Assembly: GCA_964623865.1 (NCBI GenBank)
Contig: CAZUVX010000013.1
Location: forward strand, 1 to 56,539
DNA: 56,539 bases
From: an uncultured Spirochaetaceae bacterium
GTDB lineage: Bacteria; Spirochaetota; Spirochaetia; DSM-27196; PWMO01
Direction: 5' to 3'
Shown: in pieces, positions 15,767-37,421 of the stretch
Position numbering within the stretch: position 1 is the stretch's first letter
Layout: each line of letters starts with the position of its first letter
The notes under the pieces: model-generated
Told to the model about the DNA's origin: nothing
The model's input: the letters and a program-made list of their open reading frames with translations, nothing else
The model's database searches: none
Program-made: the position numbers and the translations under genes

Positions 15767-17019
15767 TGCACGCTCACCTCCATGACGGAGTTGGCGGTGA
15801 ACCGCACCTTCTCCAGGTCCTTCGTTCGCAGCTTGACGCTGATCATCTCGGAGGGTTGCACGTGGTTCTTCTTGATCGAGCGCACCGGGACGTTATCAAT
15901 GGAGATATTGACCCGCGCGTTGTTCTTCACCACGAGGGACCGCATGTAGAGCTTGTCCGGTGCATCCGGATCGAACTGCGCGGGATTCACGTACTTGATG
16001 TTGGCGCCGGCGCGAATCTGCACCTGCCGCTTCGGACGCTTCCGCAGGAGATAGTCCGCGGCGTGTCCGCCGGTGCGCCGCGACTCCTCGGAGACGTAGT
16101 CAACCAAGTCGTGCACGTGCAGCACGTTCCCACAGGAGAAGATGCCGTCGACGCTGGTCATCATGGTCGAGTCCACCAGGGGTCCGCCGGTTTGCGGATT
16201 CAGCTCCACCCCCGCCGACTTGGAAAGCTCGTTTTCCGGAATCAGCCCGACCGACAGGAGGACCGTGTCACAGGCGATCTCGAACGACTGATCCGTGTCG
16301 GGAATGCCGTTCTCCAGCGGCGTGACCCGGACCCCCTCGACGCGCTCCTTGCCGTGGATCTCCGAGACGACGTGACTCAGGTATAGGGGGATCTGAAAAT
16401 CATTGAGACACTGGACGATGTTTCTGGTCAGGCCGGATGGATAGGGCTGGATCTCTACGACGGCGTGAACCTTCGCCCCGACCCAGGTCATTCGCCGCGC
16501 CATTATGAGGCCAATGTCGCCCGACCCGACCACGACGACGTCCTTTCCGGGGATGTACCCTTCAATGTTGACCAACCGCTGGGCAAGACCGGCGGTGTAG
16601 ACCCCGGCGGGTCTGGTACCGGGGATCCGGATGTTCCCCCGGTTGCGCTCCCGACACCCCATGGCCAGGATGACGGCCCGGGCGGAGATCCTCACCACTC
16701 CGTTGAGGGAGGAGAAGCACGCCGCCTCCTTCTGATCACCGTTGTCGGTGAGCTCTATCACGGTCGTGCTCAGAAAGACGTCGATTCCGGCGTCGCGAAC
16801 CTGGTCAATGAACTCCTCGGCGTACTCGGGCCCGGTGAACTCCTTCTTGAACTCCTGCAGACCGAAGCCGTTGTGGATGCACTGCAGGAGAATGCCCCCG
16901 AGACTCCCCTCCCGCTCCACGATCACCGGGGTGAATCCGCGACGGTGCACTTCCATGGCGGCGGCCATTCCCGCGGCCCCACCTCCGATTACCAGTACGT
17001 CGTATTCCAACTCCGTCAT
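15763..17019 (-). CDS. FAD/NAD(P)-binding pyridine nucleotide-disulfide oxidoreductase (NADH-oxidase-like subunit)
   Basis: ATG at 17019 overlaps the upstream stop (ATGA). Two dinucleotide folds (DVLVIGGGAAGMAAA and VVVVGSGDIG). Confidence 0.85.
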
Positions 17020-18449
17020 AGTCGTCCCACCAGTAGCTTGCTCCGGCCGCCCCGCTTCGTAATCTCCTCGGCGGACATGCCGGTCTCCCGCATGAGGATC
17101 TTCAAGACCTTGTAGGTGCAGAAGCCCCCCTGGCATCGCCCCGCCCTGGCGCGGGTGAAGAACTTGATGCCGTCAAGGGTTGTATGACCCCGCCGAATGG
17201 CTCGCAGGATCTCCGCCTCGGAAACCTCTTCACAGCGGCAGACGATCTCCCCGTAGGCGGGGTCCTTCGCCACGAGCTGGTCCGCTTCGTAAGGGCTGGC
17301 CCCGCGGATCCGCGCGACCCGGTCGACGTAGGGATCGAAGTCGGTCTTCTCCGTGAGGGAGCACCCCGCCGTCTTCAGGAGGTCCTTCACATACTCCGCA
17401 ATCGCGGGAGCAGCGGTGAGCCCCGGCGACTGTATACCGGCAACCTGAATAAGCTGAGGCGCCTTCTCGGAAACGGCAATGTAGAAGTCGCCGTCCGGAA
17501 GGACCGGGCGGAGACCGGCAAAGGAGGTGATCGCGTCGTTCTGGGAGACGACGGGCACCATCTTCCGGGCGGAGTCGAAGATCCGATCCAGCGCCTCGGC
17601 GTGGGTCGACGTATCCTCCTTGTCGTCAATGTCATCGGCGGTGGGCCCGATCAACACGGTACCCTCAACCGTCGGAATGACGAGCATGCCCTTGGAAACC
17701 TTGGTGGGCACCGGGAAGAGCACCCGCTGCGGAGCTGCCTGGGTCTGTCGATCCAGGAGGTAGTACTCCCCCTTCCGCGGCTTGATTTGGAACTCTTCGC
17801 CGCCGAAGATCCGGGAGATCTCATCGGCGTAGAGGCCGGCGGCGTTGACGACGTACCTGCCGCGGATGGAGCGGCCGTCCGCCGCATGGACCGTGTACAC
17901 GCCGTCGGCGAACGCCGCCCGTACCACCTGAAAGTCGGTGACGAGGCGGAGGCCGTTCTTCCGGGCGTTCTCCACCAGGGCAAAGACGAAGCGATAGGGC
18001 TCAATGATGCCGCCCCCCGGGGCGTACAGGCCGCCCACCACGTCCGCGTTGAGTTTGGGTTCGAGCTGAAGCATGCGATCCCGCGAGCACATCTCGATCC
18101 CGATTGCACCGTTGGTGACGCCCTGCTCGTAGAGATGATTGATGTACTTCATCTCCTCATCCTTGAGCGCCACGACGAGGATGCCGCAGCGACTGAAGGG
18201 GAAGTCCAGCTCCCGCCGGAGGCGGTCGAACATGACGTTCCCCTGCACCTCCAGTCGCGTCTTGAGGTAATTGGCGGGATGGTGGAACCCACCGTGAATG
18301 ATGCCGGAGTTCGCCTTGGAGGTTCCGAAAGAGACATCCGCCTCCTTCTCCACCAGGACAACGTCCAGCCGGTACGCCGACAGGGTCCGCGCAATTGCCG
18401 CGCCGGTCACTCCGGCTCCAATGATTACGACGTCTGCATCAACGCTCAT
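17016..18449 (-). CDS. FAD-dependent glycerol-3-phosphate dehydrogenase (GlpA-like) with a BFD-like [2Fe-2S] domain
   Basis: DVVIIGAGVTGAAIA FAD fold of the DAO family. C-terminal CRCEEVSEAEIL...RAGRCQGGFC BFD-like motif. Co-operonic with glpK. Confidence 0.88.
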   Translation of the reverse strand: MSVDADVVIIGAGVTGAAIARTLSAYRLDVVLVEKEADVSFGTSKANSGIIHGGFHHPANYLKTRLEVQGNVMFDRLRRELDFPFSRCGILVVALKDEEMKYINHLYEQGVTNGAIGIEMCSRDRMLQLEPKLNADVVGGLYAPGGGIIEPYRFVFALVENARKNGLRLVTDFQVVRAAFADGVYTVHAADGRSIRGRYVVNAAGLYADEISRIFGGEEFQIKPRKGEYYLLDRQTQAAPQRVLFPVPTKVSKGMLVIPTVEGTVLIGPTADDIDDKEDTSTHAEALDRIFDSARKMVPVVSQNDAITSFAGLRPVLPDGDFYIAVSEKAPQLIQVAGIQSPGLTAAPAIAEYVKDLLKTAGCSLTEKTDFDPYVDRVARIRGASPYEADQLVAKDPAYGEIVCRCEEVSEAEILRAIRRGHTTLDGIKFFTRARAGRCQGGFCTYKVLKILMRETGMSAEEITKRGGRSKLLVGRL

Positions 18450-20058
18450 CAGACCTTCCTTCCGTTGATCCGGACCGGGGCGCCGTGCCGGATACGTCGC
18501 CGTCCGGGTCGGCGTCGGACCGGGCGATGTAGGACTCCGAACCCCGCCGCGAGCCGCTCAGGAGCAGGCACACCTGCTGCGTCTCCGGCGCCATCTCGTC
18601 GGGGGAGCCCCCCCGGCGGCGACGTTCGAGCTCGTCTCGCAGAATTGCGTGGCGCTGCGGGGTAATGGGAAAGCGAAAGCCCACAAGAATCCCGAAGAGG
18701 ATCAGAACCGCGGGTCCAATCACAAAGAATACGCGCAGACCCGTCAAGGCCGCCTGGGGGACATCCGCCCCGGGAGCAAAGCCGATGATCTCCAGGACTA
18801 CGCCGACGAGCGGGAGCGCCAGAAGACCCTGCACGGCCTTGCGAGTCAGCGTCATGGCGCCCGAATACACTCCGGCGCGGCGCATACCGTAGAGGTACTC
18901 ATCGACATCAATGACTGAGGGGAGAATGGCCCAGGGCACCATGATCCCCGCCGACACACCCGCGCCGATCACGACGCAGACTGCGGCAATGGCGACTACC
19001 GAGGACTCCCCGGTCAGGCTCAGGCTCGCCAGGAGCCCGACCAACCAGATGGATAGGCCGACTACGTAGGCGCGCCCCTTGCCCCAGCGGTTGGAGATGG
19101 CCACATACACCGGCAACATGACGATCTGCGTCAGCAGGAGCGAGCCCATGGCGACGGAGTACAGGCTCTGTCGGCCGATGTAGTAGGTGATGTAGTAGGC
19201 AAAGAGCGCCATGAGGACGTCCACGGCGGTGTAGGAGAGAATGTACATGGCCACGTGAATGCGGAAAGAGCGGTTGGTGAAGATGCGGCCGAACTGCCGG
19301 AAGACATCCAGCGGCCCCGCTGCGCCGGTGGTACGGACCCGAACGGACTCCTGCGGCAGCTCCCACGTGCCGAGGAAGACCGGCAGCCACACCACCCCGT
19401 AGAGGACGGCGAAGGCAATACCCATCACCAGATAGCCGATCGACTGGTCGCCGCCGACGGCGTTGATGATGAGCGTGGGGATGGTTCCCGCCAGGAGGGC
19501 CGAGACCTGCGAAAAGATGATGCGCGTGCCGGACAGCCGAGTCCGCACCGCGTAGTCCCGGGACATCTCCGCGTTGAGAGCGGAGTACGGCACCATGACC
19601 ATGGTGAAGACGGTGCTGAAGAGCATGTATGCCAGGCTGTAGTAGATGAACAGGCCAACCTGGCTGCCGGAAGGAATGGGTAACCACAGCGCGGCAAAGC
19701 TCAGGATGATGGGGATGATCCCGATCAGGAAGTAGACGCGCCGGCGGCCGAAGCGGCTCTTGGTGCGGTCCGAGATGTAGCCCATCAGCGGGTCCGTCAC
19801 GGCATCCCACACCTTGCCGATGGCGAAGACCACTCCCGCCAGAGCCGGAGACATGCCCACGACCTCCGTAAGGAAGAAGAGAAAGAGCATGCCGATGAGG
19901 AGGAAGGAACCGCCCCCGTAGAGGTCGCCGATTCCGTAGGCCATGAGGTTCAGCGGACCGACTCGCCGCTCCCGACCGCCGTCATCCGGCCTTGCCCCGC
20001 CCGGAGCCGCCCCGCCCGGAGCCGCCCCGCCCTGGTCGTCGTTGCGTGTCCCGCTCAC
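18439..20058 (-). CDS. Glycoside-pentoside-hexuronide (GPH):cation symporter family transporter (YihO/YihP/MelB-like)
   Basis: AGGAG RBS then GTG at 20058, overlapping the GH31 stop (GTGA). MAYGIGDLYGGG...GKVWDAVTDPLMGYISDRTKSRFGRRR is the GPH signature region. 12-TM-like body and a long hydrophilic C-tail. The start is moderately uncertain. Confidence 0.85.
   Translation of the reverse strand: MSGTRNDDQGGAAPGGAAPGGARPDDGGRERRVGPLNLMAYGIGDLYGGGSFLLIGMLFLFFLTEVVGMSPALAGVVFAIGKVWDAVTDPLMGYISDRTKSRFGRRRVYFLIGIIPIILSFAALWLPIPSGSQVGLFIYYSLAYMLFSTVFTMVMVPYSALNAEMSRDYAVRTRLSGTRIIFSQVSALLAGTIPTLIINAVGGDQSIGYLVMGIAFAVLYGVVWLPVFLGTWELPQESVRVRTTGAAGPLDVFRQFGRIFTNRSFRIHVAMYILSYTAVDVLMALFAYYITYYIGRQSLYSVAMGSLLLTQIVMLPVYVAISNRWGKGRAYVVGLSIWLVGLLASLSLTGESSVVAIAAVCVVIGAGVSAGIMVPWAILPSVIDVDEYLYGMRRAGVYSGAMTLTRKAVQGLLALPLVGVVLEIIGFAPGADVPQAALTGLRVFFVIGPAVLILFGILVGFRFPITPQRHAILRDELERRRRGGSPDEMAPETQQVCLLLSGSRRGSESYIARSDADPDGDVSGTAPRSGSTEGRSDER
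19994..20035. repeat. 15-bp tandem repeat, about 2.8 copies (GCCCCGCCCGGAGCC)
   Basis: Copies at 19994..20008 and 20009..20023, and a partial copy at 20024..20035. Encodes GGAAPGGAAPGGA near the N-terminus of the GPH transporter. Confidence 0.85.
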
Positions 20059-22142
20059 CTGGAGTTCTCCTTTCCGGCCGTCTCTTCCTCGACGTAGGCC
20101 GGAAGGCCGGCGAAGAGATCCGCGAATTCGCTGTCCTTGCGGTAGTACACCGCCGGCCGCCCAACCGGCGCGGCAATCCGGTGCCACCCTCCCCGGTAGC
20201 GTTTGCCCGTCCACAGATGGATCCACTCGTCATCCGGGAGGTAGACCGAAATGGCGTGACGGAAGGGCCGCCGCACCGGCGCCACCATAAGATCCGCCCC
20301 GTACATGAACTGATACTTCATCCACTGGGAGCGGCGGTCCCGGGGGTAGTGGATGTATGGGTGGCGAATGGCCGGCAGCCCCTCCTCGACGTACTCCTGG
20401 ACCAGGCGCCGATGGTAGGGCTTGAGCCCGACGTAGACTGCGGTCATCCGCGCCAGGTGGCGCAACGTCCCGGCGTCGCTGTTGAACTGCCAGTTCACGT
20501 CGGGGCGGTTTCCCTCATGACTGCGCATGATCGGACCAAAGGCGGAGAGCTCCGCCCAGCGGGCGAAGAGCCGCTTTCCCCGCTTCACCCACCCGAGGGA
20601 GGTGTAGCCCCCAATGTCCGAGTGGGTGAACCCGACACCGCTCATCCCCAGGGAGATGGCGGCGGGGACAACCGTTGCCAGACCGTCGCTGAAGCTCCAG
20701 TTCACCAGCTGGTCCCCCGCCCAGTAGGCGGTAGCGTACTTCGACGCCCCGGTGTAACCCGCCCGCATGAAGAAGAGGATCTCCCCGAGCTTGCCGGCCT
20801 CGTCGATCGCTTCGTAATTGGCCTTCGCCCACATGGTGGGCCAGCGGTTGTGCGCCGTCTCGGGATTCTCCCCGGAGTAGAGGACGCAGTCCGTAGGGAG
20901 GTACTCCCCGAAGTCCGCCATCCATCCGGAGAGACCAATGTCGATCATGTTCTCCCTGATGACCGACTTGATCCACGCGTACGCCTCCGGGTTGGTCAGG
21001 TCGACGATCGCAGCGGAGAAGGTCGTAATGGGAATGTAGTAGTCCTCCCCGCTCGCCCGCTTGACGCAGTAACCCTTCTCCGACGCCTCGCGGTAAAGGC
21101 GTCCCTCAAGGGCCAGGTAGGGGTTGATGTAACCGAGAACCCGCACCCCTTCGGCGTTGTACGCGGCAATGGTGTCCGGTAGGTCCGGGTAGAGCGACTC
21201 GTCGTACTCCCAGTTCCACATGAGCTGGCGCCCGAAGGAGGTTTCCCGCTTGCCTTCCCAGTCCTGCGTCCACAGAGCGGTGACTTTGACGCCGCCGTTC
21301 AGGGCGTCCCGGTACTTCCGCGCAACCGCCTCGGTGCCGCCTTGCACGCCGAGGATCATGCCGTCGTGGATCCACTCCGGCAGCGCCGGAGCGCGGCCCA
21401 GCTCGCGCGAGATAAAGCCCACCGTGTGGCGAGGATCGTCATCATCGACATAAATCTTGACTGCTTCAGGAACCTCCCAGAAGTGAAGCTCCGCCCGATC
21501 CGCCGGGCGGAAGTTGAGCTCGGCGTAGGCCGAGGTGTAGCAGATGCAAGCCAGATTCGCCGACGTCACGAAGGTGGGCTGCGGGTAGTAGGTGTTGTAC
21601 CAGTGGCCGCCGGCGCCGGCGCGGAGGTTCGCCAGGACGGTGATCAGATCGTGGGCCCGGCCGATCCCCTGCTCCTGCACCCAGATAGGTACCTTGCGCC
21701 CCTTCATGTTCAGGAAGGTGTACTGCTCCCCGCAGCCGTAGATGCCCTTCGCCGGACCGGTGAGGATGGAGAGCCGGATCCGGTTCGTTCCCTCCGGGAC
21801 GTCGGCCACCGTGACCGTCGCGGTCCGACCCTCCGCCACGACGGTCACGGTTCCGGCGCCGGCAATCGAAAGCACGACCGTTCCGGCGGATTCCTCGTGG
21901 ATGGTGCACTCGCCGGCGTCGAACCGCTCGAGGTTGGTATCACGCACGGTGAAGTGACCCCGAACCATGTGGTAGACGCCGTCACCACGGCCGGCAACGA
22001 GAAGCGGCGCCTTCGGCGTGTGCCGCAGGATGGCGCGACCCCGGAACCACACCTCGACCACGTGTTCCGCACGCCGCACCGAGAGGCCCGGGAGGCTCTC
22101 CTCCGCAGTCGGTACCATTGCAGGGCTCCTGTCACTCTTCAC
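20055..22142 (-). CDS. GH31 glycoside hydrolase, YihQ-like (candidate sulfoquinovosidase)
   Basis: 695 aa. Catalytic segments GWMADFGEYLP and YWAGDQ, HSDIGGYT, and WTQDWEGKRETSFGRQLMWNW. This strongly resembles my recollection of E. coli YihQ, with a constant +5 residue offset for Q262, Q288, W304, D405, D472 and Y508. Alternative ATG start at 22118. Confidence 0.7.
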   Translation of the reverse strand: MKSDRSPAMVPTAEESLPGLSVRRAEHVVEVWFRGRAILRHTPKAPLLVAGRGDGVYHMVRGHFTVRDTNLERFDAGECTIHEESAGTVVLSIAGAGTVTVVAEGRTATVTVADVPEGTNRIRLSILTGPAKGIYGCGEQYTFLNMKGRKVPIWVQEQGIGRAHDLITVLANLRAGAGGHWYNTYYPQPTFVTSANLACICYTSAYAELNFRPADRAELHFWEVPEAVKIYVDDDDPRHTVGFISRELGRAPALPEWIHDGMILGVQGGTEAVARKYRDALNGGVKVTALWTQDWEGKRETSFGRQLMWNWEYDESLYPDLPDTIAAYNAEGVRVLGYINPYLALEGRLYREASEKGYCVKRASGEDYYIPITTFSAAIVDLTNPEAYAWIKSVIRENMIDIGLSGWMADFGEYLPTDCVLYSGENPETAHNRWPTMWAKANYEAIDEAGKLGEILFFMRAGYTGASKYATAYWAGDQLVNWSFSDGLATVVPAAISLGMSGVGFTHSDIGGYTSLGWVKRGKRLFARWAELSAFGPIMRSHEGNRPDVNWQFNSDAGTLRHLARMTAVYVGLKPYHRRLVQEYVEEGLPAIRHPYIHYPRDRRSQWMKYQFMYGADLMVAPVRRPFRHAISVYLPDDEWIHLWTGKRYRGGWHRIAAPVGRPAVYYRKDSEFADLFAGLPAYVEEETAGKENSR

Positions 22143-23374
22143 GTTGGTCTCTCCTTGGATACTTCACCGTCCCGGGCGGGGCTTGATGGCGAGCCCGGTG
22201 GAGCCCTTCGTGGCGACCTCGCCCCGTCGGGGCGCTTCCCCGCGTGAGCGGCCGCCGCCGGCGCGACCGGTGTGCCTCCCTGTCGTGCCGACTCTCGCGC
22301 GTCAAGGGAGATCTCGAGGGCGCATTGTGCATCCTCGAGGGAGCAGGCAACGGCGCCACCGTATTCCACCGTCCGGGCGAAGTGCTCGGTGTAGGCGCGA
22401 ATGCTCTCCGGCTCGGTTACCTCGGGTCCGAAGGTCCGCACGTGAGCGTCTTCGGGAGAATCCGACGAGGTGCCCCACGCAACCAGACCCAGGTGGTGAG
22501 CCTGGCCATAGTCCAGGCTGGTGTACGGCGCATCCTTGAGGCCGCACCACACCGTCCCGTCGGTGCCGTGCACCTGAATGGTGAGATTGAAGTCGAAGCC
22601 GGTAAGGGCGTGGGAGAGCTGCAGTATGCCGCCGTTCTCGTATCTACCGTTGATATACGCGACGTCTTCGTAGTCGAAATCGCGGTGGATGTCGTCGACG
22701 GTGACGCACTGCACTTCGGAGACCTCCAGGCGCGGAATGAACCGCGCCAAGTCCACCCAGTGAGAGGTCTCTTCGACAATGAGCCCACCCGAGAGCTCCT
22801 CGCGCTGGATCCACTGGTTCCACTTGTCCCGCTTGAAGGGTGTACGGAAATGGTACAGGGAGAATGCGCGAACCGTCCCGGTGAAGCTTTGCACCAGCTC
22901 CCGTACCGCCGTAACTGCCGGGTTGACGCGGAACTCGTATCCCACTGCGGCTCGGATACCCCGCTTCTCCGCGTCGCGTCCCGCCGCCACGACCGCGGCA
23001 GCGGCCCCTCGGGTCAACGCAATCGGCTTCTCCAGGAGAAGGTGCTTCCCCGCCTCGAGGACCTGCAGCGCCTGCTCGCCGTGCTGGTAGTCGGGAGTGC
23101 ACACACTCACCATGTCGATCTCCGGATCCGCGAGCACCTCATCCAGGGATTGGTACGTGCGCACCCCGAGGTCCTCCCAGGACGCGGCACGCTCCGTTTC
23201 CGAGAAGAGGGTCTTGAGATCCGGCATGCTGCCCTGGTCGAAGGTACCTCCGGGCCCGGTCAGTCGTTCAGGTTGCGCATCGCACACTGCGTAGAGATTC
23301 GCCTCCGAAGAGCGCAGGTATCCCGCGCAGTGTGCCAACCCAATGCCAAGACCCACTACTGCGGCGTTCTTCAC
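22139..23374 (-). CDS. Gfo/Idh/MocA family NAD(P)-dependent oxidoreductase
   Basis: GTG start overlapping the upstream stop (GTGA). N-terminal Rossmann fold (VVGLGIGLAH...VSVCTPDYQHGE...LLEKP) and a C-terminal alpha/beta dimerisation domain. Low-complexity Pro/Ala/Arg C-tail. Confidence 0.85.
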   Translation of the reverse strand: MKNAAVVGLGIGLAHCAGYLRSSEANLYAVCDAQPERLTGPGGTFDQGSMPDLKTLFSETERAASWEDLGVRTYQSLDEVLADPEIDMVSVCTPDYQHGEQALQVLEAGKHLLLEKPIALTRGAAAAVVAAGRDAEKRGIRAAVGYEFRVNPAVTAVRELVQSFTGTVRAFSLYHFRTPFKRDKWNQWIQREELSGGLIVEETSHWVDLARFIPRLEVSEVQCVTVDDIHRDFDYEDVAYINGRYENGGILQLSHALTGFDFNLTIQVHGTDGTVWCGLKDAPYTSLDYGQAHHLGLVAWGTSSDSPEDAHVRTFGPEVTEPESIRAYTEHFARTVEYGGAVACSLEDAQCALEISLDARESARQGGTPVAPAAAAHAGKRPDGARSPRRAPPGSPSSPARDGEVSKERPT

Positions 23375-24570
23375 GTCGGATTCTCCTCAATAAGGCGCCC
23401 ACACTCGGCGCGGATCTCCGCCACCCCGCGAACGTCTTCATCCGGGGCGCCGATGGCACGGAGTCGTTCCTCGAAGCGCGCCAGATAGGCGTCCAGGCGC
23501 CGTGAGTCGACGGGCCGGCTCGTCGGGCCCATGAGATCCTCGAAGGCGTCGTAGAAGACCGCATCCAGGACCTCCTCGGGCAGACGCAGCCCCGTCACGG
23601 TGGGCACGGCGGCCCGAGTCGGTTCGAAGGGGTTCTCGAAGACCGCGTCCGAGGTCAGGAAGCGCAGGAGGCGCCTGGTACCCTCGGCGTTCTCTTCAGG
23701 GCTGCGCCGCGGCAAGTCTTGGCGATGCCCGGGGAACCAGAAGCCGTCGCTGCCGAAGAGAATGCGATGCCGGAAGGTATGGAAGAAGGAGCGGGCATCC
23801 TCGTAACGGCGGTAGAGCTCCGCGTAGAAGTAGAGCCCCGGGGCGAGGTCTAGAACCGCGTTCGGGTAGCGATGCATGAAGGTGTAGAAAGAAGGAAGAT
23901 CGCCGGCACGGAAGAGCAGGTGCGGGAAGATGAAGGTCGTGTCGCCGTGCACCGCGCAGATCGCCGCGGCCTGGCGCTGCAGTTCCTCGAAGGAAGGTAC
24001 CCCGGGGGCGTCGTAGCGGATGCCGAGCTCCGCGTTGATCCCGCCGCTTTGCCCGCGCCAGAACAGCGGCGGGTCGGCGACGTGAATGACAACCGGCATG
24101 CCCAGTCGGCCCGCCTCGTGAAAGAGCGGCCCATAGGCGGCACCGTGCAGAGGCAAGCCGGTACGCGCCTGAAAGTGGGGCTTGCCCGCCCACATCTTGA
24201 TACCGTCGAAGCCGATTGCGTGCAGCTCCCGCAGTTGCGCCGCAAAGTCTACCTCGACGTCGGCGACCTGGTGGACGAGCCCGCTGTAGTCCAGGCCGCC
24301 GAAGGCGAAGACGCTCACCTCAGGGGCGACGTCGCTGAAGGGGTTGAAGCGGTTGTCCTTGTCGCCCTCAACGAGCTCATCCACAAGGGCCGGGGCGACA
24401 AGCTTGCCGTAGATGGCCTCCGGGTTGAAGTTCATCCGGTGGAAATCCGGCAGCGACACAATGCCGACCGCCTCCAGATTGAAGGCGTGAATGTACTCGG
24501 CAAAGGCCCGGATCTGCCGGTGATCGGAGAAGTGAACATGGGAGTCCGCCAGTGGTCGTAGTGAAAGCAT
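23371..24570 (-). CDS. Amidohydrolase-superfamily metal-dependent hydrolase (amidohydrolase_2-like; possible lactonase or decarboxylase type)
   Basis: 399 aa. N-terminal DSHVHF (HxH metal motif) and later VVIHVADP and FPHLLF segments. TIM-barrel hydrolase-like; its substrate is unknown. Confidence 0.7.
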   Translation of the reverse strand: MLSLRPLADSHVHFSDHRQIRAFAEYIHAFNLEAVGIVSLPDFHRMNFNPEAIYGKLVAPALVDELVEGDKDNRFNPFSDVAPEVSVFAFGGLDYSGLVHQVADVEVDFAAQLRELHAIGFDGIKMWAGKPHFQARTGLPLHGAAYGPLFHEAGRLGMPVVIHVADPPLFWRGQSGGINAELGIRYDAPGVPSFEELQRQAAAICAVHGDTTFIFPHLLFRAGDLPSFYTFMHRYPNAVLDLAPGLYFYAELYRRYEDARSFFHTFRHRILFGSDGFWFPGHRQDLPRRSPEENAEGTRRLLRFLTSDAVFENPFEPTRAAVPTVTGLRLPEEVLDAVFYDAFEDLMGPTSRPVDSRRLDAYLARFEERLRAIGAPDEDVRGVAEIRAECGRLIEENPT

Positions 24571-24571
24571 G

Positions 24572-25435
24572 CTACTTCAGTGCAAAGGATGGCCGCTGTG
24601 CCACCTCCGATGTCAGGGTGAGACCGGCATCCGGATGCCGCCGGGCGAAGGAAGCGGGGAAGCTCGGGGAAATGTCCCCGAAGAGAAGCTTGCGCACCAC
24701 CGCTCCCTGCCAGGGCCGATTCAGATAGATGCGCAGCTTCCGCGCTTCCATGATCTGCCGAAACCCTACGGTAACGGCTCGAGGCGGCACCCGCTCGAAG
24801 GCCCCCCGCAGGGCGGTGTTGGAGTTGATGGTGATCGTTTCCCGACTCAACGCGATCACCCGGGTTCCCAGTTGCAGAAAGTCCTCCGCCGAAAGCGCTG
24901 CCTCCGGCTCGTTGAAGGCCAGGTGTCCGTTGATGCCGACCCCGGCGTAACACACACGTGCGCCGCCGAGGTCGGCGAGGCGCCGGTCGTAGTCTTCGGG
25001 GTCCCTCGGGTCCGGGAAGTGAACCCGTTCCGCCGAGAAGCCTCCGGTGGAACCCAGAGGCTCAATCAGCTCCCGCCGAATGAAGCCGCGAAAGGAGAGC
25101 GGACTCTCTTCAGGGATCAGCTCGCCGTCGCCGTCCAGGTATTCGTCCATGAAGAAGAGATGGAGCCGAGAGAGATCAATGGGTCGCTGCTTCACCAGCC
25201 AGACGAAGCGCCGGTACTGGAAGACCGGGCCCACCGGTACAATGAACACGCACTCGCCCGGGGGGGTGCGGCTCCCGCCGGAGTCGCCGTCCCCTCCATT
25301 CGCCCCCTCGATCTCCAGGTACATGGCGAGGGCCATTCGATAGTAGAGATCAACGTCGCTGTCGACCACTTCCACGGGCAAAGGCAGGTCCCTCGCGCCG
25401 GTATGGATGTCGGTGTGGTAGATCTCCTCGCGCAT
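24572..25435 (-). CDS. NagB/glucosamine-6-phosphate isomerase-deaminase family protein
   Basis: ATG at 25435. Motifs FFMDEYL and GVGINGHLAFNEPE are NagB-type rather than 6-phosphogluconolactonase-type. The stop lies 1 nt before the next gene's ATG. Confidence 0.8.
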   Translation of the reverse strand: MREEIYHTDIHTGARDLPLPVEVVDSDVDLYYRMALAMYLEIEGANGGDGDSGGSRTPPGECVFIVPVGPVFQYRRFVWLVKQRPIDLSRLHLFFMDEYLDGDGELIPEESPLSFRGFIRRELIEPLGSTGGFSAERVHFPDPRDPEDYDRRLADLGGARVCYAGVGINGHLAFNEPEAALSAEDFLQLGTRVIALSRETITINSNTALRGAFERVPPRAVTVGFRQIMEARKLRIYLNRPWQGAVVRKLLFGDISPSFPASFARRHPDAGLTLTSEVAQRPSFALK

Positions 25436-25452
25436 GAGTGAGCCCTTCGTCG

Positions 25453-26310
25453 CTATCCCTTCACGGCCCCGGCGGTGAGGCCCTTGATGATCCGCTCGTG
25501 CAACAGGATGTAGACAACGATCATGGGAATGATGGCAATGATGATGGCTGCATACATGGAGGTGTAGTCGGTTCGGAACTGGCTCGTGAAGAACCGGATC
25601 CCGAGCTGGAGCGTTCGCGACCTCTCGGATGCCGTCAGGAGCAGGGCGTAGATGAACTCGTTCCAGGAGAAGAGAAAGGCGAAGGTTCCCGCCGTCACCA
25701 GCCCCAGCTTGGACAGGGGAAGCACGATCCGCGCGTACCGTTGGAAGAATCCGCACCCGTCAATTATGCTCGCCTCCTCCAGCTCCCTGGGAATGGTCTT
25801 CATGAACCCGTGGACCAGGAAGAGGGAGATCGGAATGTTGATTCCCGAGTAGGTGATGACCAGCGCCCAGAGGGTGTCGTACAGCCCCATGCTCATGATG
25901 ATGCGGAAGTACGGGACCATAAGCGCGACGATGGGCACCAGAACTCCCGCCAGTATCAGGTTGAGTAGCGCGTTCTGGAACTTGAAGACGAACCGCGAGA
26001 AGACGTACGCCGCCATGGAGACGACAACAAGGTTCACCACCGTTGAAGCACCGGAAACGAAGAACGAGTTCAGAAATAGTCGATGCAGTCCCGATATCTG
26101 TACCGCTTCCACGTAGTTGGAGAACTGCGGTACATCCGGCAGGCTGAACGGCTCGGTCTGCAGCTCCAAATTGGTCTTCAAGGAGCCCACCAGGAGCCAC
26201 ACCAGGGGCACGAAGGTGGTGAACAAGAAGAAGATCAGTACCGCCCACTTGGCGATCTTTGCGACGTAATCGGTTGCCGACAGTCGGCGCGTTTTCTTGC
26301 TACGTCCCAC
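25453..26310 (-). CDS. Carbohydrate ABC transporter permease (MalG-like)
   Basis: Six-TM BPD-transporter protein with an EAA-like loop (EASIIDGCGFFQRYARIVLP). Start uncertain (GTG at 26310 just after the upstream stop; the ORF is open to ATG 26379). Confidence 0.85.
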   Translation of the reverse strand: MGRSKKTRRLSATDYVAKIAKWAVLIFFLFTTFVPLVWLLVGSLKTNLELQTEPFSLPDVPQFSNYVEAVQISGLHRLFLNSFFVSGASTVVNLVVVSMAAYVFSRFVFKFQNALLNLILAGVLVPIVALMVPYFRIIMSMGLYDTLWALVITYSGINIPISLFLVHGFMKTIPRELEEASIIDGCGFFQRYARIVLPLSKLGLVTAGTFAFLFSWNEFIYALLLTASERSRTLQLGIRFFTSQFRTDYTSMYAAIIIAIIPMIVVYILLHERIIKGLTAGAVKG

Positions 26311-28712: not shown

Positions 28713-29933
28713 CTATCCACCAACGGTGGAGAAAAAGCCGTCAAAGACCAGGTCCGCCGCACCTTGTCCGGCGATTACCGGATCGTACTCGTGCGGCACA
28801 ATGTCGCGTTGCACCGCCGCTGCGAAGGGCCTCAGGGAACCGAGACTCTCCCGTAGCGCGTCACACAGCACCTCCGACAACGCCTGGGAACGCGTCACAA
28901 TGAGAACCGCCTCCGGGTTGAGCGTGTTCAGCAAGCTGTACACCGCCGTAACCAGATGCGCCTTTGCTTCATCGAGGGTTCGCAGCACCTCCTCGTCTCC
29001 TGCAGCGAGGCGGGCGAAGAAATCCTCGATGCTGGGAACCTCCGCCTCCCGGCGCAGGACCTCCTCGCTGAGATAGGTCTCCAGACATCCCCGGCGCCCG
29101 CACCGGCACTCCGGCCCGGACGGGTCCACGACCAGGTGGCCCACCTCGAGGGCGGTCCGGTGGTGGTTCACGAAGAGCGCGCCGTTTTGAATGAAGGCGC
29201 CGCCGACGCCGGCTCGCAGCACCAGAGTGAGCACGGATCGGCGTCCCAGCACCGATCCGTAGCGGTACTCAGAAAGGGCAATCACCGCCGCGTTATTGTG
29301 AAGGTGCACCGGGACGCCGAAGACCTCCTCCAGGCGCTCCCGCAATGGGAAGCCGTCCATTCCGTCGATCCGCGGGTAGCGAAGAACGACGCCGGACTCA
29401 AGGTCCACCATACCCGGTGCGCCGACCCCGATTCCCAGGAGACGGTCGCGATCTATACCCGCCTGGTCAATCGCCTCGGTGATCAGCGCCTCGAGGCGCT
29501 CCAGGATCTCTTCGACTCCGGTGAGACCGTTGAGGTCCACAACATCCCGGTAGACCGGGGCTCCCGCGAAGTCGACCACCACGGCGGAGGCCGACCGCGA
29601 CCAGAAGTCCACACCTACTACGTAGAGGGCGTCGGGATTGACGCAGTAGTACGCCGGGCGGCGCCCTTTGCGCTCGCCCTCCGACCGCTCGACGGGCGGA
29701 TCCGACCGTTTCTCCCCCTGTCGCTCCGAGAGCCTCTCTGCGTCCTCGACACAGTTGCTGATGAAGCCCTGCTCCTCCAGGACCTGGAAGATGCGGAATA
29801 CCGTCGGCGGCTTGAGCCCGGTGAGCTGCGCAACCTGACTCTGGGACAATCCGCTCTGACGGCGGATGAGGCTCAACACCAGCTTCTCGTTGCGGGCGCG
29901 AATGTCGGCGCTGCGGAGGGGCTTCGCTTCCAT
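28713..29933 (-). CDS. ROK family transcriptional regulator
   Basis: N-terminal wHTH (RARNEKLVLSLIRRQSGLSQSQVAQLTGLKPPTVFRIFQVLEEQGFI). ROK glucokinase-like body with the zinc motif CRCGRRGCLETY. A charged low-complexity insert of about 35 aa lies between the two domains. Confidence 0.88.
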   Translation of the reverse strand: MEAKPLRSADIRARNEKLVLSLIRRQSGLSQSQVAQLTGLKPPTVFRIFQVLEEQGFISNCVEDAERLSERQGEKRSDPPVERSEGERKGRRPAYYCVNPDALYVVGVDFWSRSASAVVVDFAGAPVYRDVVDLNGLTGVEEILERLEALITEAIDQAGIDRDRLLGIGVGAPGMVDLESGVVLRYPRIDGMDGFPLRERLEEVFGVPVHLHNNAAVIALSEYRYGSVLGRRSVLTLVLRAGVGGAFIQNGALFVNHHRTALEVGHLVVDPSGPECRCGRRGCLETYLSEEVLRREAEVPSIEDFFARLAAGDEEVLRTLDEAKAHLVTAVYSLLNTLNPEAVLIVTRSQALSEVLCDALRESLGSLRPFAAAVQRDIVPHEYDPVIAGQGAADLVFDGFFSTVGG

Positions 29934-32761: not shown

Positions 32762-32790
32762 TTGACCACAATGTTTTTGTTTCTTACAAT
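32762..32790 (+). promoter_or_regulatory. Sigma70-like promoter for the transaldolase-aldehyde dehydrogenase operon (TTGACC-17 nt-TACAAT)
   Basis: TTGACC at 32762..32767, a 17-nt spacer, then TACAAT at 32785..32790, inside the only AT-rich patch of the 198-bp divergent intergenic region. This implies a 5'UTR of about 150 nt. Confidence 0.55.
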
Positions 32791-32797
32791 AAGAAAC
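32779..32797. promoter_or_regulatory. Perfect inverted repeat GTTTCTTA-caa-TAAGAAAC (candidate repressor operator)
   Basis: 8+3+8 perfect palindrome overlapping the -10 of the predicted tal promoter. It lies in the leader of the divergent suyA-like operon. Confidence 0.5.
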
Positions 32798-32947: not shown

Positions 32948-33592
32948 ATGAAGTTCTTTCTCGACACGGCCATGGTAGATGAGATCAAGGAGGCGGCCCG
33001 CTGGGGCATCCTCGACGGCGTGACCACCAATCCAACGCATGTTTCAAAGACCGGGCGCACCGTCTCGGACCTCTATCCGGAGATTGTGAAGCTCGTCGAC
33101 GGCGACGTCAGTCTGGAGACGATCGGCCTCGACGCCGACACGATCGTCAAGGAGGGGCGCGACCTCGCAAAGGTCGGCGACAACGTGGTCGTAAAGGTTC
33201 CGGTCATGAAGGAGGGTCTTGTCGCCGTGAAGCGGCTGGCAGCCGAGGGAATCCGAACCAACGTGACCGTCAACTTTCAGCCCGTTCAGGCCCTCATGGC
33301 GGCCAAGGCGGGGGCCTCTTACATCAGCCCCTTCGTAGGTCGCCTCGATTACGTGGGCCACGACGGCATGGAGCTGGTTGAGCAAATCCGCCAAATCTAC
33401 GACAACTACGGCTACGAGACGGAGATCATTGTCGCCGCGGTACGGCACCCGCTTCACGTCGTCCAGGCGGCACTGATCGGCGCCGAAGTGTGCACCATGA
33501 ACTTCGACGTAATGAGCAAGCTCTACGATCACCCGCTGACCGATCAGGGCATCGAGATGTTTCTGGAAGACTACAAGAAGGTGCCGAAGTAA
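32948..33592 (+). CDS. Transaldolase, TalC/Fsa subfamily (candidate 6-deoxy-6-sulfofructose transaldolase)
   Basis: AAGGAG RBS. 214 aa, MKFFLDTA...DGVTTNP, Schiff-base Lys in VVVKVP. Glu in SLETIG and Phe in SPFVGRLD indicate the transaldolase rather than the F6P-aldolase subtype. Confidence 0.88.
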   Translation: MKFFLDTAMVDEIKEAARWGILDGVTTNPTHVSKTGRTVSDLYPEIVKLVDGDVSLETIGLDADTIVKEGRDLAKVGDNVVVKVPVMKEGLVAVKRLAAEGIRTNVTVNFQPVQALMAAKAGASYISPFVGRLDYVGHDGMELVEQIRQIYDNYGYETEIIVAAVRHPLHVVQAALIGAEVCTMNFDVMSKLYDHPLTDQGIEMFLEDYKKVPK

Positions 33593-33601: not shown

Positions 33602-35035
33602 ATGGACACGAAGAAGCTGTATCTCAACGGCGAATGGGTCGACACCGGCAACTACTTCACCGTCGTCGATCCGGGCAATCGGGAGGAGGTTGCCCGGGTC
33701 GCTGCGGCGGGACCCGAGCTTGCCAAGAAGGCCGTGGACGATGCCTGGGAAGCCTTCGCCACCTGGCGACGCCTCACCGGGATCAAGCGGGGAGACTACC
33801 TCCTCGCGGTTGCCGAGTGCCTGGAGCGCCGCAAGGATGAGATCGGCAAGACCATCGTTCGGGAGAACGGCAAGCCCCTCGGCCAGGCCGTCGGTGAGGT
33901 GAACGTCGCGGTAGACCATCTGCGCTGGTTCGCCGAGGAGGCGCGCCGGGGGTACGGACGGATCATCCCGCACCAGGCCGACGGCAAGCGCCACCTGGTG
34001 CTCAAGCAACCGGTGGGCCCGGTCGCCTGCATCTCTCCGTGGAACTTCCCGCTTGTGCTGTCGGTGCGGAAGGTCGCCCCCGCCCTGGCGGCGGGGTGCA
34101 CAGTGATCCTTCGGCCCGCAACGCAGACCCCGCTCTGCAACGTTGCCCTGGCTGAGTGCTTTGACGAGGTCGGTATCCCGAAGGGAGTCTTCCAGCTCAT
34201 TGCAGGCCCGGCGAGCAAGATCGTCGGCGAGTTCATGGACCACCCGAACCTCCGCAAGATCTCCTTCACCGGATCCACCGAGGTGGGCAAGAAGCTGCTG
34301 CAACAGTCGGCGAAGACCGTGACGAAGCTCTCCCTTGAGCTCGGCGGACACGCCCCCGTAGTCGTCTTCGAAGATGCGGACCTGGACACGGCCGTCGAGG
34401 GCGCACTGATCACCAAGTTCCGCAACACCGGCCAGTCGTGTATTGCTGCAAACCGGATCTACGTGCAGCGCTCAATTTACGAGGAGTTCCTGAAACGCTT
34501 CGGGGAGAAGGCATCCAGGATGAAGGTCGGCTACGGCCTGGATGAAGGGGTCGAGATCGGCGCCATTGTAGATGAAGAGGGCCTCAAGACCGCCCTGGCA
34601 CACATTGAGAACGCCAAGGAGTCAGGGGGTCGCGTCATCGCCGGAGGAAGGGTCGTCGAAGGCGCAACGGGCAACTTCCTCGAACCCACCGTCATTGCAG
34701 ATGTTCCCGACACTGCCGCGTGCATGCGCGAGGAGACCTTCGCCCCGATCGCACCGGTCGTCGCCTTCGACACCGAAGAGGAGGCGATACGGCAGGCCAA
34801 CAACACGCGCTACGGTCTTGCCGCCTACTTCTACACCCAGGACATCAATCGCGGTTTCCGCGTCGCCGAGGCCCTGGAGGCCGGTACGGTCGGCTGGAAC
34901 GACGCCGTTCCCTCGACCAGCAACGCCCCTTTCGGCGGCTTCAAGGAGAGCGGCCTGGGCCGCGAGCTCGGACAGGAGGGCATGGAAGCCTTCATGGAGA
35001 CGAAGCACGTCTCCCTGGGCGGGGTGGACGTGTAA
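33602..35035 (+). CDS. NAD(P)+-dependent aldehyde dehydrogenase, GabD-like (candidate sulfolactaldehyde dehydrogenase)
   Basis: 477 aa. ALDH motifs FTGSTEVGKKL, ELGGHAP, catalytic Cys in GQSCIAANR, and EETFAPIAP. Starts 9 nt after the transaldolase stop. Confidence 0.9.
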   Translation: MDTKKLYLNGEWVDTGNYFTVVDPGNREEVARVAAAGPELAKKAVDDAWEAFATWRRLTGIKRGDYLLAVAECLERRKDEIGKTIVRENGKPLGQAVGEVNVAVDHLRWFAEEARRGYGRIIPHQADGKRHLVLKQPVGPVACISPWNFPLVLSVRKVAPALAAGCTVILRPATQTPLCNVALAECFDEVGIPKGVFQLIAGPASKIVGEFMDHPNLRKISFTGSTEVGKKLLQQSAKTVTKLSLELGGHAPVVVFEDADLDTAVEGALITKFRNTGQSCIAANRIYVQRSIYEEFLKRFGEKASRMKVGYGLDEGVEIGAIVDEEGLKTALAHIENAKESGGRVIAGGRVVEGATGNFLEPTVIADVPDTAACMREETFAPIAPVVAFDTEEEAIRQANNTRYGLAAYFYTQDINRGFRVAEALEAGTVGWNDAVPSTSNAPFGGFKESGLGRELGQEGMEAFMETKHVSLGGVDV

Positions 35036-35176: not shown

Positions 35177-35923
35177 CTATAGCCCCGGCACTATCGCACT
35201 CGCGACCAGATACAGCCCCACGACAACGAGAGCCACGTCCGTTACGGTCTTGAAGCGGGCGGCGTCCACCTTTCCGGAGAGCCGCGCACCCAGAAAGACT
35301 GAGGCCAGGACAACGGGTATGAACGGCGCCGACCGCGCCGCAACGGATGCGTTGATGCTTCCCGCGACAATGTGGGTCGCCAGGATTCCCACACTCATGA
35401 CGACGAAGTAGAACTGTACATTGGACTTCGCGCGCATCCGGTCGGGATCCGAGGCGTACAGGTAGGCCACCATACCCGGGCCGGGCGTGGCGAAGGCGCC
35501 GCCCAGCAGTCCCGCGATAAGCGTGAAGATGTAGCCGACTCCGCGCTTCCCCAGTGCCCTCCGGGAGCGCTCCACCATTGTGATGTTCCAGATGATGAGC
35601 ACGATCACCACCCCACCGAGCACGCCGGTTATGACCTCCTGAGGCAGCGAATAGAGAAAGAGTGCACCCAGGGGCAAGACCACCATTCCCGCCACGCCGA
35701 AACGAAGAATCCGGCGGTACTCGACCCCGTGACGGTGGAGGAAGAAGTTGTAGAGCACCACCGCCCCGCCGGGCAGGATGGCCATGCCGACCGCCTCAGG
35801 GGTCGGATAGACCACGGCGAGGGCCGGCACGACGATCAATCCGTAGGCAAAGCCGGTGAGGCCTTGGACGAATCCCCCAAGGAAGTAGAGGCCGGCAGTG
35901 AGCAGAATGAGCGAAAGGTCCAT
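35177..35923 (-). CDS. TauE/SafE family sulfite/organosulfonate exporter
   Basis: ATG at 35923. 248 aa with 7-8 TM helices. Gly-rich helices (FLGGFVQGLTGFAYG, LIAGLLGGAFATPGPG) are typical of the TauE/SafE family. Confidence 0.85.
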   Translation of the reverse strand: MDLSLILLTAGLYFLGGFVQGLTGFAYGLIVVPALAVVYPTPEAVGMAILPGGAVVLYNFFLHRHGVEYRRILRFGVAGMVVLPLGALFLYSLPQEVITGVLGGVVIVLIIWNITMVERSRRALGKRGVGYIFTLIAGLLGGAFATPGPGMVAYLYASDPDRMRAKSNVQFYFVVMSVGILATHIVAGSINASVAARSAPFIPVVLASVFLGARLSGKVDAARFKTVTDVALVVVGLYLVASAIVPGL

Positions 35924-35951
35924 GTGCAAAGCCTCGTTGCGGTCGGACCCG

Positions 35952-37325
35952 CTACCGCCACCCGATCCGCAACTGCCGCGCCAGCTTCTGCAGCAGTCCA
36001 CGATGGTGCCCCTGCACGACACACATATGGTGCGGCATGCCGGCGTGGAGCATCTCCTCGAACCACTCGTTCACATCGACTTCGGTGATTTCCGCGAGAC
36101 CGTTCGTAGCCATGATGTGACGCTTGGGCGTGACGGTGCGGCCCTCGAGGGCGGTCATGTGGTAGAAGCCGTCGGTACGCCACATTCGGAAAATGGTGAC
36201 GGGCATGTCCGCCTTGATAGTGGCTTCCACCACTGCGGGGAGCCGGTTATTGAATTGAACGCCAATGTGCGGGCCGAGCTCCGTCCCCACAGGCTCGCAG
36301 AGCTCGAAGGGTGCCGCCCCGGTATGCCAGATGCCTATGTGCCTCGCGTCATGCTCGAGCCAGTCCGACAGGTAGACCGGACCAATTCCCAGGTCCTCCG
36401 CAATGAGACTGCACAGGGCGCCGTCGACATCTCCCTCCATGGCGATCGCCTTCCCCTCGGAGACGTGCCGTGCGAGGGCCAGGTAGGGCCACTGCTTCAT
36501 GACCGTGGGGAGGTCCGGCCAGTCCCGGAACGCGAGGGCCGAGGAGGCCTCGTTGGTGAGATACTCCTGCATGGCAAGGTAGTACCGCGCCTGTAGAGGC
36601 AGCGCGGATTCGTCGGCATCCCGGTAGGGCAAGCCCAGGGACTCGAAGGCCGAGACCTCGGCGGCGACGGCATCATCCTTCTGGTTCTCTACCCGGCCGA
36701 GAAACTCCTGGACGCTCTCGTGGTAGAGCTGGACTCCGAGCTCGTCATTGAGATCAATGGGGTCGGCGTGGAAGTCCACGAAGCCGGGAGCGTGATACCC
36801 GACCAGCGCCACTTTGCCGCGGCGCAGGTCCGTTGCCGCAACGACCAGGCGGACCGCCTCTTCCAGACGGCCGCGTACCGCCGAGTCGCCGGGATCGCCG
36901 TAGACGAACTCGAAGGGGCGGTTGAGATGGCGCAGCGTTGCCGCCATGACGTGGGTACCGACCAGGGAGTTCGCGCTGATCATGGAACCCTCCTCCTTCT
37001 CCGGCGTCGCCCAGAGAACGAGGGGGCGGTTCCACACCTGCGCGAGCACCGGCGCCAGGCGACCGTCACTGATGGTCGGTTGCGTCACCACGACGGTGTC
37101 GACGCCGGCAGCCTCACACTCCGCGAGAGCCGCCCGCACGCCGGCGTCGTCGGCAATGTTGTCGGAAGGGATGGTCACCCCGAAGGGCGCCTCCCCCGCG
37201 TACGCCCGAAGACGCTTCTTGATCTCGGCGCCCCAGTCGGGGTCGAAGCCGGGCCGCTTCCTGCCGAGGAGGAGCAGTCCGACTCGTCGAGTTGTCAGGT
37301 TGTCACTGTGCTCTCCGGTTGCCAT
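35952..37325 (-). CDS. L-fucose/L-arabinose isomerase family protein (candidate sulfosugar aldose-ketose isomerase)
   Basis: 457 aa. N-terminal Rossmann-like domain and a C-terminal domain with AMEGDVDGAL and GIWHTGAAP segments resembling the metal-binding regions of FucI/AraA-like isomerases. Operonic with the TauE gene. Confidence 0.7.
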   Translation of the reverse strand: MATGEHSDNLTTRRVGLLLLGRKRPGFDPDWGAEIKKRLRAYAGEAPFGVTIPSDNIADDAGVRAALAECEAAGVDTVVVTQPTISDGRLAPVLAQVWNRPLVLWATPEKEEGSMISANSLVGTHVMAATLRHLNRPFEFVYGDPGDSAVRGRLEEAVRLVVAATDLRRGKVALVGYHAPGFVDFHADPIDLNDELGVQLYHESVQEFLGRVENQKDDAVAAEVSAFESLGLPYRDADESALPLQARYYLAMQEYLTNEASSALAFRDWPDLPTVMKQWPYLALARHVSEGKAIAMEGDVDGALCSLIAEDLGIGPVYLSDWLEHDARHIGIWHTGAAPFELCEPVGTELGPHIGVQFNNRLPAVVEATIKADMPVTIFRMWRTDGFYHMTALEGRTVTPKRHIMATNGLAEITEVDVNEWFEEMLHAGMPHHMCVVQGHHRGLLQKLARQLRIGWR

Positions 37326-37338: not shown

Positions 37339-37357
37339 GTTTCTTTCGGTAAGTAAT
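37339..37357. promoter_or_regulatory. Degenerate second copy of the GTTTCTT...TAAG operator-like motif
   Basis: GTTTCTTTcggTAAGTAAT lies 14-32 nt upstream of the isomerase ATG (37325). It shares the GTTTCTT half-site and the TAAG core with the 32779..32797 palindrome. Confidence 0.3.
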
Positions 37358-37421
37358 TAATGTGTTCGGGTGCAGTGTAGTGCAGGTGGGTGCGACAGGT
37401 AAAGGGTCTCGGGCGCGGGCG

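Follow-up and report, generated by a model that had tools for sequence, protein, structure and literature searches.

The stretch of DNA analysed here, referred to as the window, is the 56,539-nucleotide (nt) stretch from position 1 to 56,539 of contig CAZUVX010000013.1 of an uncultured Spirochaetaceae bacterium (assembly GCA_964623865.1). It carries an island of genes that appears to take sulfoquinovose (SQ) to pyruvate and sulfite (Table 1). Our subject is the protein P0001, a predicted SQ isomerase and the sole clear aldose-ketose isomerase candidate in that island. The first-pass annotation of the window had described its gene as a 457-amino-acid (aa) open reading frame with the segments AMEGDVDGAL and GIWHTGAAP, lying immediately upstream of an exporter gene across a 28-nt gap, without giving the strand. 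The frame proves to be intact on the minus strand, a plus-strand reading of the same positions being ruled out by a stop codon that interrupts it, and the two segments are found at residues 295-304 and 331-339 of the protein.

Table 1. Features of the SQ island and its control regions, with positions in the window
Feature	Position	Strand	Remarks
glpK	13867-15381
Glycerol-3-phosphate-dehydrogenase-like pair	15763-18449	minus	DAO/BFD protein and Pyr_redox_2 protein, beside glpK
MFS_2 transporter gene	18439-20226
YihQ-type sulfoquinovosidase gene (GH31)	20055-22142	minus	NF007746 (PRK10426), 861 bits against a cut-off of 553
Gfo/Idh/MocA gene		
Amidohydro_2/NagB-like module	23371-25756	minus
NagB-like gene	24572-25756	minus	within the preceding module
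ATP-binding-cassette (ABC) importer genes			island member, by family assignment
ROK regulator gene	28713-29933
LarA-like, SuyB-like and SuyA-like genes			island members, before the transaldolase gene
Perfect palindrome GTTTCTTACAATAAGAAAC	32779-32797		suyA/tal divergent control region; reference copy of the motif
Transaldolase gene (tal; Tal), FSA type	32948-33592	plus	predicted sulfofructose transaldolase; divergent from suyA
Aldehyde dehydrogenase (ALDH) gene, GabD-like	33602-35035	plus	predicted sulfolactaldehyde dehydrogenase
TauE/SafE sulfite or sulfonate exporter gene	35177-35923	minus	248 aa from ATG 35923; Pfam PF01925, 98 bits
Spacer, isomerase stop to TauE ATG	35924-35951	minus	28 nt; holds a GAGG ribosome-binding site, without a terminator
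Isomerase gene (P0001)	35952-37325	minus	457 aa; ATG 37325 to TAG 35952
Operator-like box GTTTCTTTCGGTAAGTAAT	37339-37357		14-32 nt upstream of the isomerase ATG, downstream of the -10-like hexamer
Candidate promoter	37374-37403	minus	TTTACC (37398-37403), 18 nt, TACACT (37374-37379)

The isomerase and TauE genes share a strand and are convergent to the Tal-ALDH pair; on the other side a subtilase gene lies upstream of the isomerase across a 96-nt gap. The distance between isomerase and exporter is exactly 28 nt, as the first-pass annotation had it, if TauE starts at ATG 35923, and this start is supported by the related contigs L008 and L009, where tblastn matches of the 248-aa form begin 30-33 nt past the end of the isomerase gene. 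The order of the two genes is kept in both contigs, a terminator scan found no terminator-like site between them, and they presumably form a two-gene operon and are co-transcribed.

In comparisons with the NCBIfam models, the best match to P0001 is NF048012, the model for the SftI sulfoquinovose isomerase (154.6 bits, E 3e-45, model positions 9-438 of 443). The second best is AraA, at 31.9 bits against a cut-off of 622 (E 5e-8), and the FucI model gives no match to P0001. Pfam places the protein in PF02952, Fucose_iso_C (34 bits, cut-off 29.3), with AraA_central just short of its threshold (23 bits, cut-off 24), and PF07221, the domain of the AGE/YihS family, does not match it. Judged by these profiles P0001 is an SftI homologue, outside NCBI's narrowly defined SftI equivalog group. 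It is not recognised as a bona fide L-arabinose or L-fucose isomerase, the models for those enzymes having failed and its neighbours being the TauE and subtilase genes.

The AlphaFold2 model of P0001, built on 40 homologues, is of high confidence (pLDDT 92.9, pTM 0.91). A Foldseek search with it retrieves L-arabinose isomerases at TM-scores (TM) of 0.80-0.84 (E down to 1e-27) and D-arabinose and L-fucose isomerases at 0.76-0.80, with nothing else comparable; by sequence, AraA was the sole match in the Protein Data Bank, where no SftI/SqvD structure was found. The modelled fold is thus of the AraA/FucI type, with N-terminal, central and C-terminal beta-rich parts. The FucI/AraA-like family proposed in the first-pass annotation, together with its suggestion that profile models be used to check it, is borne out, with SftI emerging as the closest curated family, but the strict two-domain layout it had described gives way to this three-part fold.

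Multiple alignments set E297, D321 and H433 of P0001 against E337, D361 and H528 of E. coli FucI, which Seemann and Schulz reportedly identified as its Mn2+ ligands in 1997, and against E306, D334 (adjoining the ligand E333) and H450 of AraA. The three residues are invariant in every clade examined and in the canonical SftI anchor described below, and they are the predicted metal ligands of P0001. His350 of AraA is not conserved at the aligned position, an invariant H334 standing four residues upstream. While P0001 is like E. coli AraA and FucI in overall fold (TM 0.76-0.84) and in its aligned metal ligands, it is only 17-19% identical to them, is shorter than both and much shorter than FucI (591 aa), and has no ara or fuc pathway genes near it.

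The enzyme type to which these comparisons point is already in the literature. SftI of Bacillus aryabhattai converts SQ to sulfofructose and also interconverts fructose-6-phosphate (F6P) and glucose-6-phosphate (G6P) (Frommeyer et al., PMC7491151). SqvD, which is of the SftI type, belongs to PF02952, the family of FucI, and conserves the Mn2+ ligands (PMC9594981). E. coli YihS, whose reaction is the one predicted for P0001, has the unrelated AGE fold (PF07221), and YihS is described as needing no metal and as having a 2-epimerisation side activity (PMC9594981). SqwI, which the first-pass annotation had listed among the isomerases for comparison, does not belong there, since it is an RpiB-type sulfoerythrose isomerase and not an SQ isomerase (PMC9594981). 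The name SqvD itself is used for the FucI-type isomerase in PMC9594981 and PMC12890257 but for the DUF4867 protein in PMC11968277.

The comparison with SftI/SqvD that the first-pass annotation had called for shows a clear but distant kinship. P0001 is of the same size class (about 440-460 aa) and fold family as SftI of B. aryabhattai SOS1 and SqvD of B. megaterium DSM 1804 and B. urumqiensis. It is homologous to them from end to end, shares the Glu/Asp/His metal triad and the residues F27, D28, R267 and T407, and has the same place in the pathway, ahead of a transaldolase or transketolase acting on sulfofructose and in the company of YihQ and TauE-type exporters. It is unlike them in its identity to the anchor (25%), its model score (155 bits against the 700 of the cut-off), its separate, long-stemmed clade, its lack of a detected DUF4867 (SqvB/SftX) partner and its apparent regulation by a ROK rather than a GntR protein, while the hosts of its clade are high-GC spirochaetes of halo- or alkaliphilic type. 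The DUF4867 gene is common though not universal beside SftI/SqvD and is usual in Firmicutes clusters. By tblastn it is found neither in the window nor in any locus of the P0001 clade (clade B); as a positive control, the same query finds a copy in another spirochaete locus, L046, of the clade A introduced below.

The canonical anchor is P0200, which scores 738 bits on NF048012, falls in a protein cluster with the PGAP-named 'sulfoquinovose isomerase' of Shouchella patagoniensis, and lies in a textbook cluster of the sulfo-Embden-Meyerhof-Parnas type 2 (sulfo-EMP2) kind, GntR-DUF4867-SSF-GH31-isomerase-phosphofructokinase-FbaII-ALDH. In a search of 1.84 billion representative proteins, the full-length members of the P0001 clade are 36-85% identical to P0001 at 257 bits or more; the next full-length proteins, at 25-32% identity, reach at most 142 bits, leaving a clear gap. 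P0200 is one of these more distant proteins. A second SQ-linked group of short FucI-like isomerases, for which we found no published name and which we call clade A, occurs in other Spirochaetota and is about 22-24% identical to P0001. All 14 sampled members lie in clusters of the form MFS_2-isomerase-YihQ, in some continued by a symporter, transketolase and RpiB, or isomerase-YihQ-Tal; the GH31 proteins there pass the YihQ model at about 920 bits, while the isomerases score 190-235 bits on NF048012. Further spirochaete clades lie in PfkB-isomerase-KduI-FGGY, isomerase-FbaII-FGGY and isomerase-ALDH contexts. In the 401 Spirochaetota genomes sampled, no protein exceeds the SftI cut-off (maximum 272 bits), and 52 of the genomes have matches at E <=1e-30, with up to four copies per genome.

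Clade A holds the same slot as P0001 in clusters of orthologous parts and with the same transketolase or transaldolase modules. Identities to the window's proteins are 42-54% for YihQ, 43-49% for MFS_2, 48-60% for the ABC importer and 40% for ROK. A single genome, G323, shows this well: its clade-A isomerase, about 25% identical to P0001, is accompanied by orthologues of the window's importer (48-60%), ROK (40%), YihQ (42%) and MFS_2 (47%). With neighbours 40-60% identical and isomerases only about 22-25% identical, it follows that one type of isomerase has been swapped for another between related clusters.

In quick IQ-TREE maximum-likelihood searches each SQ-linked clade receives good support: 99 for the canonical clade, 100 for clade A, and 98 for the P0001 clade, which has a stem of 1.48. 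The P0001 clade branches outside the group formed by the canonical clade, clade A and the clades of non-SQ context, on long branches and with 80-88 support at the deep nodes. Approximately unbiased (AU) tests did not reject clade A and the P0001 clade as one clade (p 0.177), and came close to rejecting a tree in which all three SQ-linked clades are held together (15.9 log-likelihood units worse, p 0.059). Four residues, F27, D28, R267 and T407, are common to all three SQ-linked clades and different in the clades of non-SQ context; the column of R267, for example, has Lys in the KduI-context clade and Asp in the ALDH-context clade. Recognition of the sulfonate end of the sugar is a candidate role for all four. 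R22 had also been considered and was dropped, its column being unstable between alignments.

Homologues of P0001 at 50% identity or more are abundant, the named ones mostly from Spirochaetaceae, Spirochaeta africana and Alkalispirochaeta. Their annotation does not go beyond 'L-fucose/L-arabinose isomerase family protein' or 'sugar isomerase'. Eleven gene contexts were examined (the window, L008, L009, L036, L037 and L038-L043); a related-locus search of genome contigs gave only two close relatives, the other contexts being gathered by wider protein and genome searches. In eight of the eleven, a module for cleaving sulfofructose, either a transaldolase or a split transketolase, adjoins the gene of the P0001 clade or is no more than about 10 kb away. 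L008 (91% identity to P0001) and L009 (85%) carry the same island as the window. L040 (65%) has the isomerase with Tal-ALDH, ROK and SuyAB-LarA, a molybdenum oxidoreductase taking the place of TauE, and L041 (59%) has Tal-ALDH-isomerase, an orthologous ABC importer and a split transketolase-RpiB-ALDH cluster. The isomerase of S. africana (55%) follows the genes for a solute-binding protein (SBP) and two permeases and is itself followed by ROK and a full sulfo-transketolase (sulfo-TK) set, which ends with an ADP-forming CoA ligase, a sulfonate symporter, TauE and MFS_2. That of Alkalispirochaeta americana (54%) stands directly before the same transketolase set, so that in both species the gene is near a split transketolase, RpiB, ALDH and the ADP-forming CoA ligase. 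L043 (55%) has isomerase-ROK and the ABC importer, with a transketolase gene at the edge of the locus, and L039 (83%) keeps the OmpA-subtilase-isomerase synteny alone. The cleaving module thus varies and the isomerase remains constant, as would be expected of the step from SQ to sulfofructose, the only one that these routes have in common.

Some of these loci have further features of their own. The oxidoreductase of L040 (11534-12610) is a sulfite-oxidase-like protein with Oxidored_molyb and Mo-co_dimer domains, which suggests sulfite oxidation in place of export. In L041, from a 5.05-Mb genome, Tal-ALDH-isomerase, the transketolase-RpiB-ALDH cluster, an iron-containing alcohol dehydrogenase and a TRAP (tripartite ATP-independent periplasmic) transporter lie within 15 kb (7022-21422), in what looks, by analogy, like the bifurcated sulfo-transaldolase (sulfo-TAL)/sulfo-TK arrangement described for Faecalicatena. 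L039 (10001-12293) has kept the upstream operator box and has a gene of the class II fructose-bisphosphate-aldolase family convergent to the isomerase; a gene of that family also adjoins the isomerase of L042. On the Planctomycetota-labelled contig of L038 (10001-20263) a 52% homologue is followed by EamA, DUF3604 and GHL10 genes, a mechanosensitive channel and a glycyl-radical enzyme with its likely activase, which could be another sulfonate-related setting.

Three blocks upstream of the isomerase gene are conserved in the window, L008, L009 and L039 within otherwise diverged sequence: CCCTTTACC; CTACACT, 17-18 nt on; and TTACTTAC[C/G]GAAAGAAA. Both blocks of the candidate promoter are conserved in an alignment of the upstream regions of three related contigs, and the proposal of a promoter rests on that conservation, because a consensus promoter scan gave nothing at threshold there. 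The operator-like box agrees with the perfect palindrome of the suyA/tal region at 14 of 19 positions and is itself kept in L008, L009 and L039, so that the degenerate copy of the tal-promoter motif noticed in the first-pass annotation is real. A pattern derived after the fact from both boxes carries little weight on its own, less than this conservation does; with up to two mismatches allowed, it has no further match in the 56.5 kb (0.12 expected by chance). L008, L009 and L040 keep the palindrome at their tal promoters, and S. africana has a related box ahead of its SBP-permease-isomerase operon. The arrangement fits a promoter with an operator just downstream, in a regulon shared with tal, for which the ROK protein would be the obvious candidate regulator. 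The kinship of the two boxes makes it probable that expression of the route's first step is induced along with that of its last.

The rest of the source genome (3.5 Mb in 142 contigs, 93% complete) was searched for other isomerases. No gene of the AGE/YihS family was found in the window, in agreement with the first-pass annotation, which had also held that a canonical YihS elsewhere in the genome would speak against P0001. The genome has one PF07221 gene, on another contig, C4. Its best model is N-acylglucosamine 2-epimerase, it aligns with E. coli YihS across 59 residues only, and its neighbours are LacI, a FAD oxidoreductase, a sulfatase and a sugar-binding protein; on all three counts it was ruled out as a YihS-type SQ isomerase, and no YihS orthologue was found in this 93%-complete genome. 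A FucI-like paralogue of 511 aa on contig C66 was also set aside. It is remote from P0001, being 23% identical by multiple alignment and 29% within the part that matched, has Asn in the columns of D321 and H432, and adjoins NAD synthetase and ABC genes.

The route that these observations suggest would begin with the YihQ-type sulfoquinovosidase, which would release SQ as the substrate of the isomerase. P0001, as a divalent-metal-dependent aldose-ketose isomerase of the FucI/AraA fold, would then convert SQ to 6-deoxy-6-sulfofructose, presumably by way of a metal-bound ene-diol on the open-chain sugar, with the metal held by E297, D321 and H433 by analogy with FucI and SqvD. The FSA-type transaldolase would split sulfofructose into sulfolactaldehyde and a C3 unit that ends as F6P, and the isomerase-TauE operon would be expressed from its own promoter, with its operator-like box related to that of the transaldolase.

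On the strength of sequence, modelled fold and gene context, we consider it likely that P0001 isomerises SQ to sulfofructose, and the first-pass proposal, made from context, gains as a prediction from the fold, the intact metal ligands, SftI as the closest family, the contexts and the failure to find a YihS orthologue in the 93%-complete genome. A number of points weigh against it. The curated 700-bit cut-off of NF048012 is not reached, and relatives from the PfkB-isomerase-KduI-FGGY context, which is not an SQ one, outscore P0001 on that model (240-272 bits), for which reason we rejected the model as a diagnostic below its cut-off. The identity of P0001 to P0200 is low, 25% over 409 residues (E 1e-35). 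Neither the PF16161 model nor a canonical DUF4867 protein finds a match in the organism's own 93%-complete genome. No SQ genes were found within 10 kb of the 83% orthologue in L039, and L042 and L038 (both 52%) have unrelated neighbours. Finally, the YihQ of the island reads FGRQLMW where that of E. coli reads FGKRVMW, with RQ at K300-R301.

Some of these points would suit an isomerase that acts on a common sugar without a sulfonate group (L-fucose, D- or L-arabinose, or a deoxy-sugar akin to them, for example) and merely sits at the edge of the SQ island. The short FucI-like family is large and functionally mixed, with spirochaete members in PfkB-KduI-FGGY, FbaII-FGGY and ALDH contexts, the three members without SQ neighbours (L039 and the two at 52%) would be natural, and the gene is indeed at the island border, adjoining the subtilase gene. 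An unrelated sugar would leave unexplained, however, the operon-like arrangement with TauE, the box common with the tal promoter, kept even in L039, and the linkage to Tal or transketolase in 8 of 11 contexts; no fuc or ara kinase or aldolase genes lie nearby, the AraA model reaches 32 bits against 622, and the FucI model finds nothing. We regard this explanation as very improbable. Hardly better placed is a role on another sulfosugar (sulfofucose or sulforhamnose), or mainly in the interconversion of F6P and G6P after the transaldolase step, which we think improbable. The second activity is one that SftI itself has (PMC7491151), the altered K300-R301 pair of the island's YihQ could hint at a variant substrate, and the P0001 clade is only 25% identical to characterised enzymes. 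On the other side, the downstream Tal and transketolase modules are those of the sulfofructose routes, YihQ keeps W304, Y508 and both catalytic Asp residues and passes its model at 861 bits, and without P0001 no enzyme of the island would make sulfofructose.

It is also conceivable that another protein isomerises SQ, either the NagB-like one or the AGE protein on contig C4, with P0001 as an auxiliary. NagB-type enzymes do open the rings of 6-phosphosugars and catalyse aldose-ketose chemistry on them, the ABC importers of L041 and L043 are likewise accompanied by the NagB-like/Amidohydro_2 pair, and an AGE-family gene does exist in the genome. Yet the isomerase accompanies the cleavage module in A. 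americana and L040 with no NagB-like gene within 10 kb, in S. africana it is the isomerase that stands directly after the permeases, in that very slot, and the C4 protein, in its sulfatase context, is not a YihS orthologue. This is the least probable of the alternatives.

Conversion of SQ to sulfofructose remains the preferred function of P0001. The protein fits best into the known SftI/SqvD kind of FucI-fold enzyme, as a deeply divergent member with a deep and mainly spirochaete clade of its own. It is a non-YihS enzyme, as the first-pass annotation had proposed and as PF02952 and the fold agree; the novelty implied there does not stand, P0001 being no new type of enzyme, as the SftI/SqvD type has been known since 2020. 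A further possibility, on present evidence rather doubtful, is that the clade represents an independent recruitment of the short FucI-like scaffold to SQ (a second or third origin), with the putative pocket residues D28, R267 and T407 converged and the DUF4867 ring-opening partner dispensed with, and that it displaced the other isomerase type in otherwise orthologous spirochaete SQ clusters.

Several other observations concern the island and its relatives. The YihQ-type protein is 45.7% identical to E. coli YihQ and keeps W304, D405, D472 and Y508 (E. coli numbering). It has Gln at the position of the sulfonate-binding Arg301 and an Arg at the position just before, whereas clade-A clusters encode GH31 proteins that keep Arg301. 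The NagB-like and Amidohydro_2 genes follow the permeases of the ABC importer in the window, in L041 (1733-3617) and in L043 (1108-3364), and so make up a conserved module. The glycerol-3-phosphate-dehydrogenase-like set beside glpK recurs in L040 (6253-9592), with DUF1667 added, directly upstream of the isomerase, and would fit the use of the glycerol part of sulfoquinovosyl glycerol. A tblastn search of plasmids found no canonical SftI, only remote family members. One of these, 27.6% identical, is on plasmid NZ_CP128401.1 of Ca. Chlorohelix allophototropha (L083, 2257-15802), where it follows a gene of the pyrophosphate (PPi)-type phosphofructokinase family. Nearby are genes for an aldehyde dehydrogenase like succinate-semialdehyde dehydrogenase (SSADH), a nitrite/sulfite reductase, siroheme synthesis and an ABC sugar importer. 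The cluster may be sulfo-EMP2-like and include sulfite reduction, here in a phototrophic member of the Chloroflexota.

The assignment of P0001 leaves the known chemistry of sulfoglycolysis unchanged, and recognising its clade would close the isomerase step in the island. Because public annotation names the clade only as L-fucose/L-arabinose or sugar isomerases, SQ-degrading spirochaetes of saline and alkaline habitats would be missed by surveys that use YihS or the narrow SftI model as a marker. F27, D28, R267 and T407 are four residues on which specificity for sulfosugars may depend, in an enzyme type without a solved structure. Orthologues are carried by the cultured S. africana and A. americana, in which the assignment would be open to direct test.

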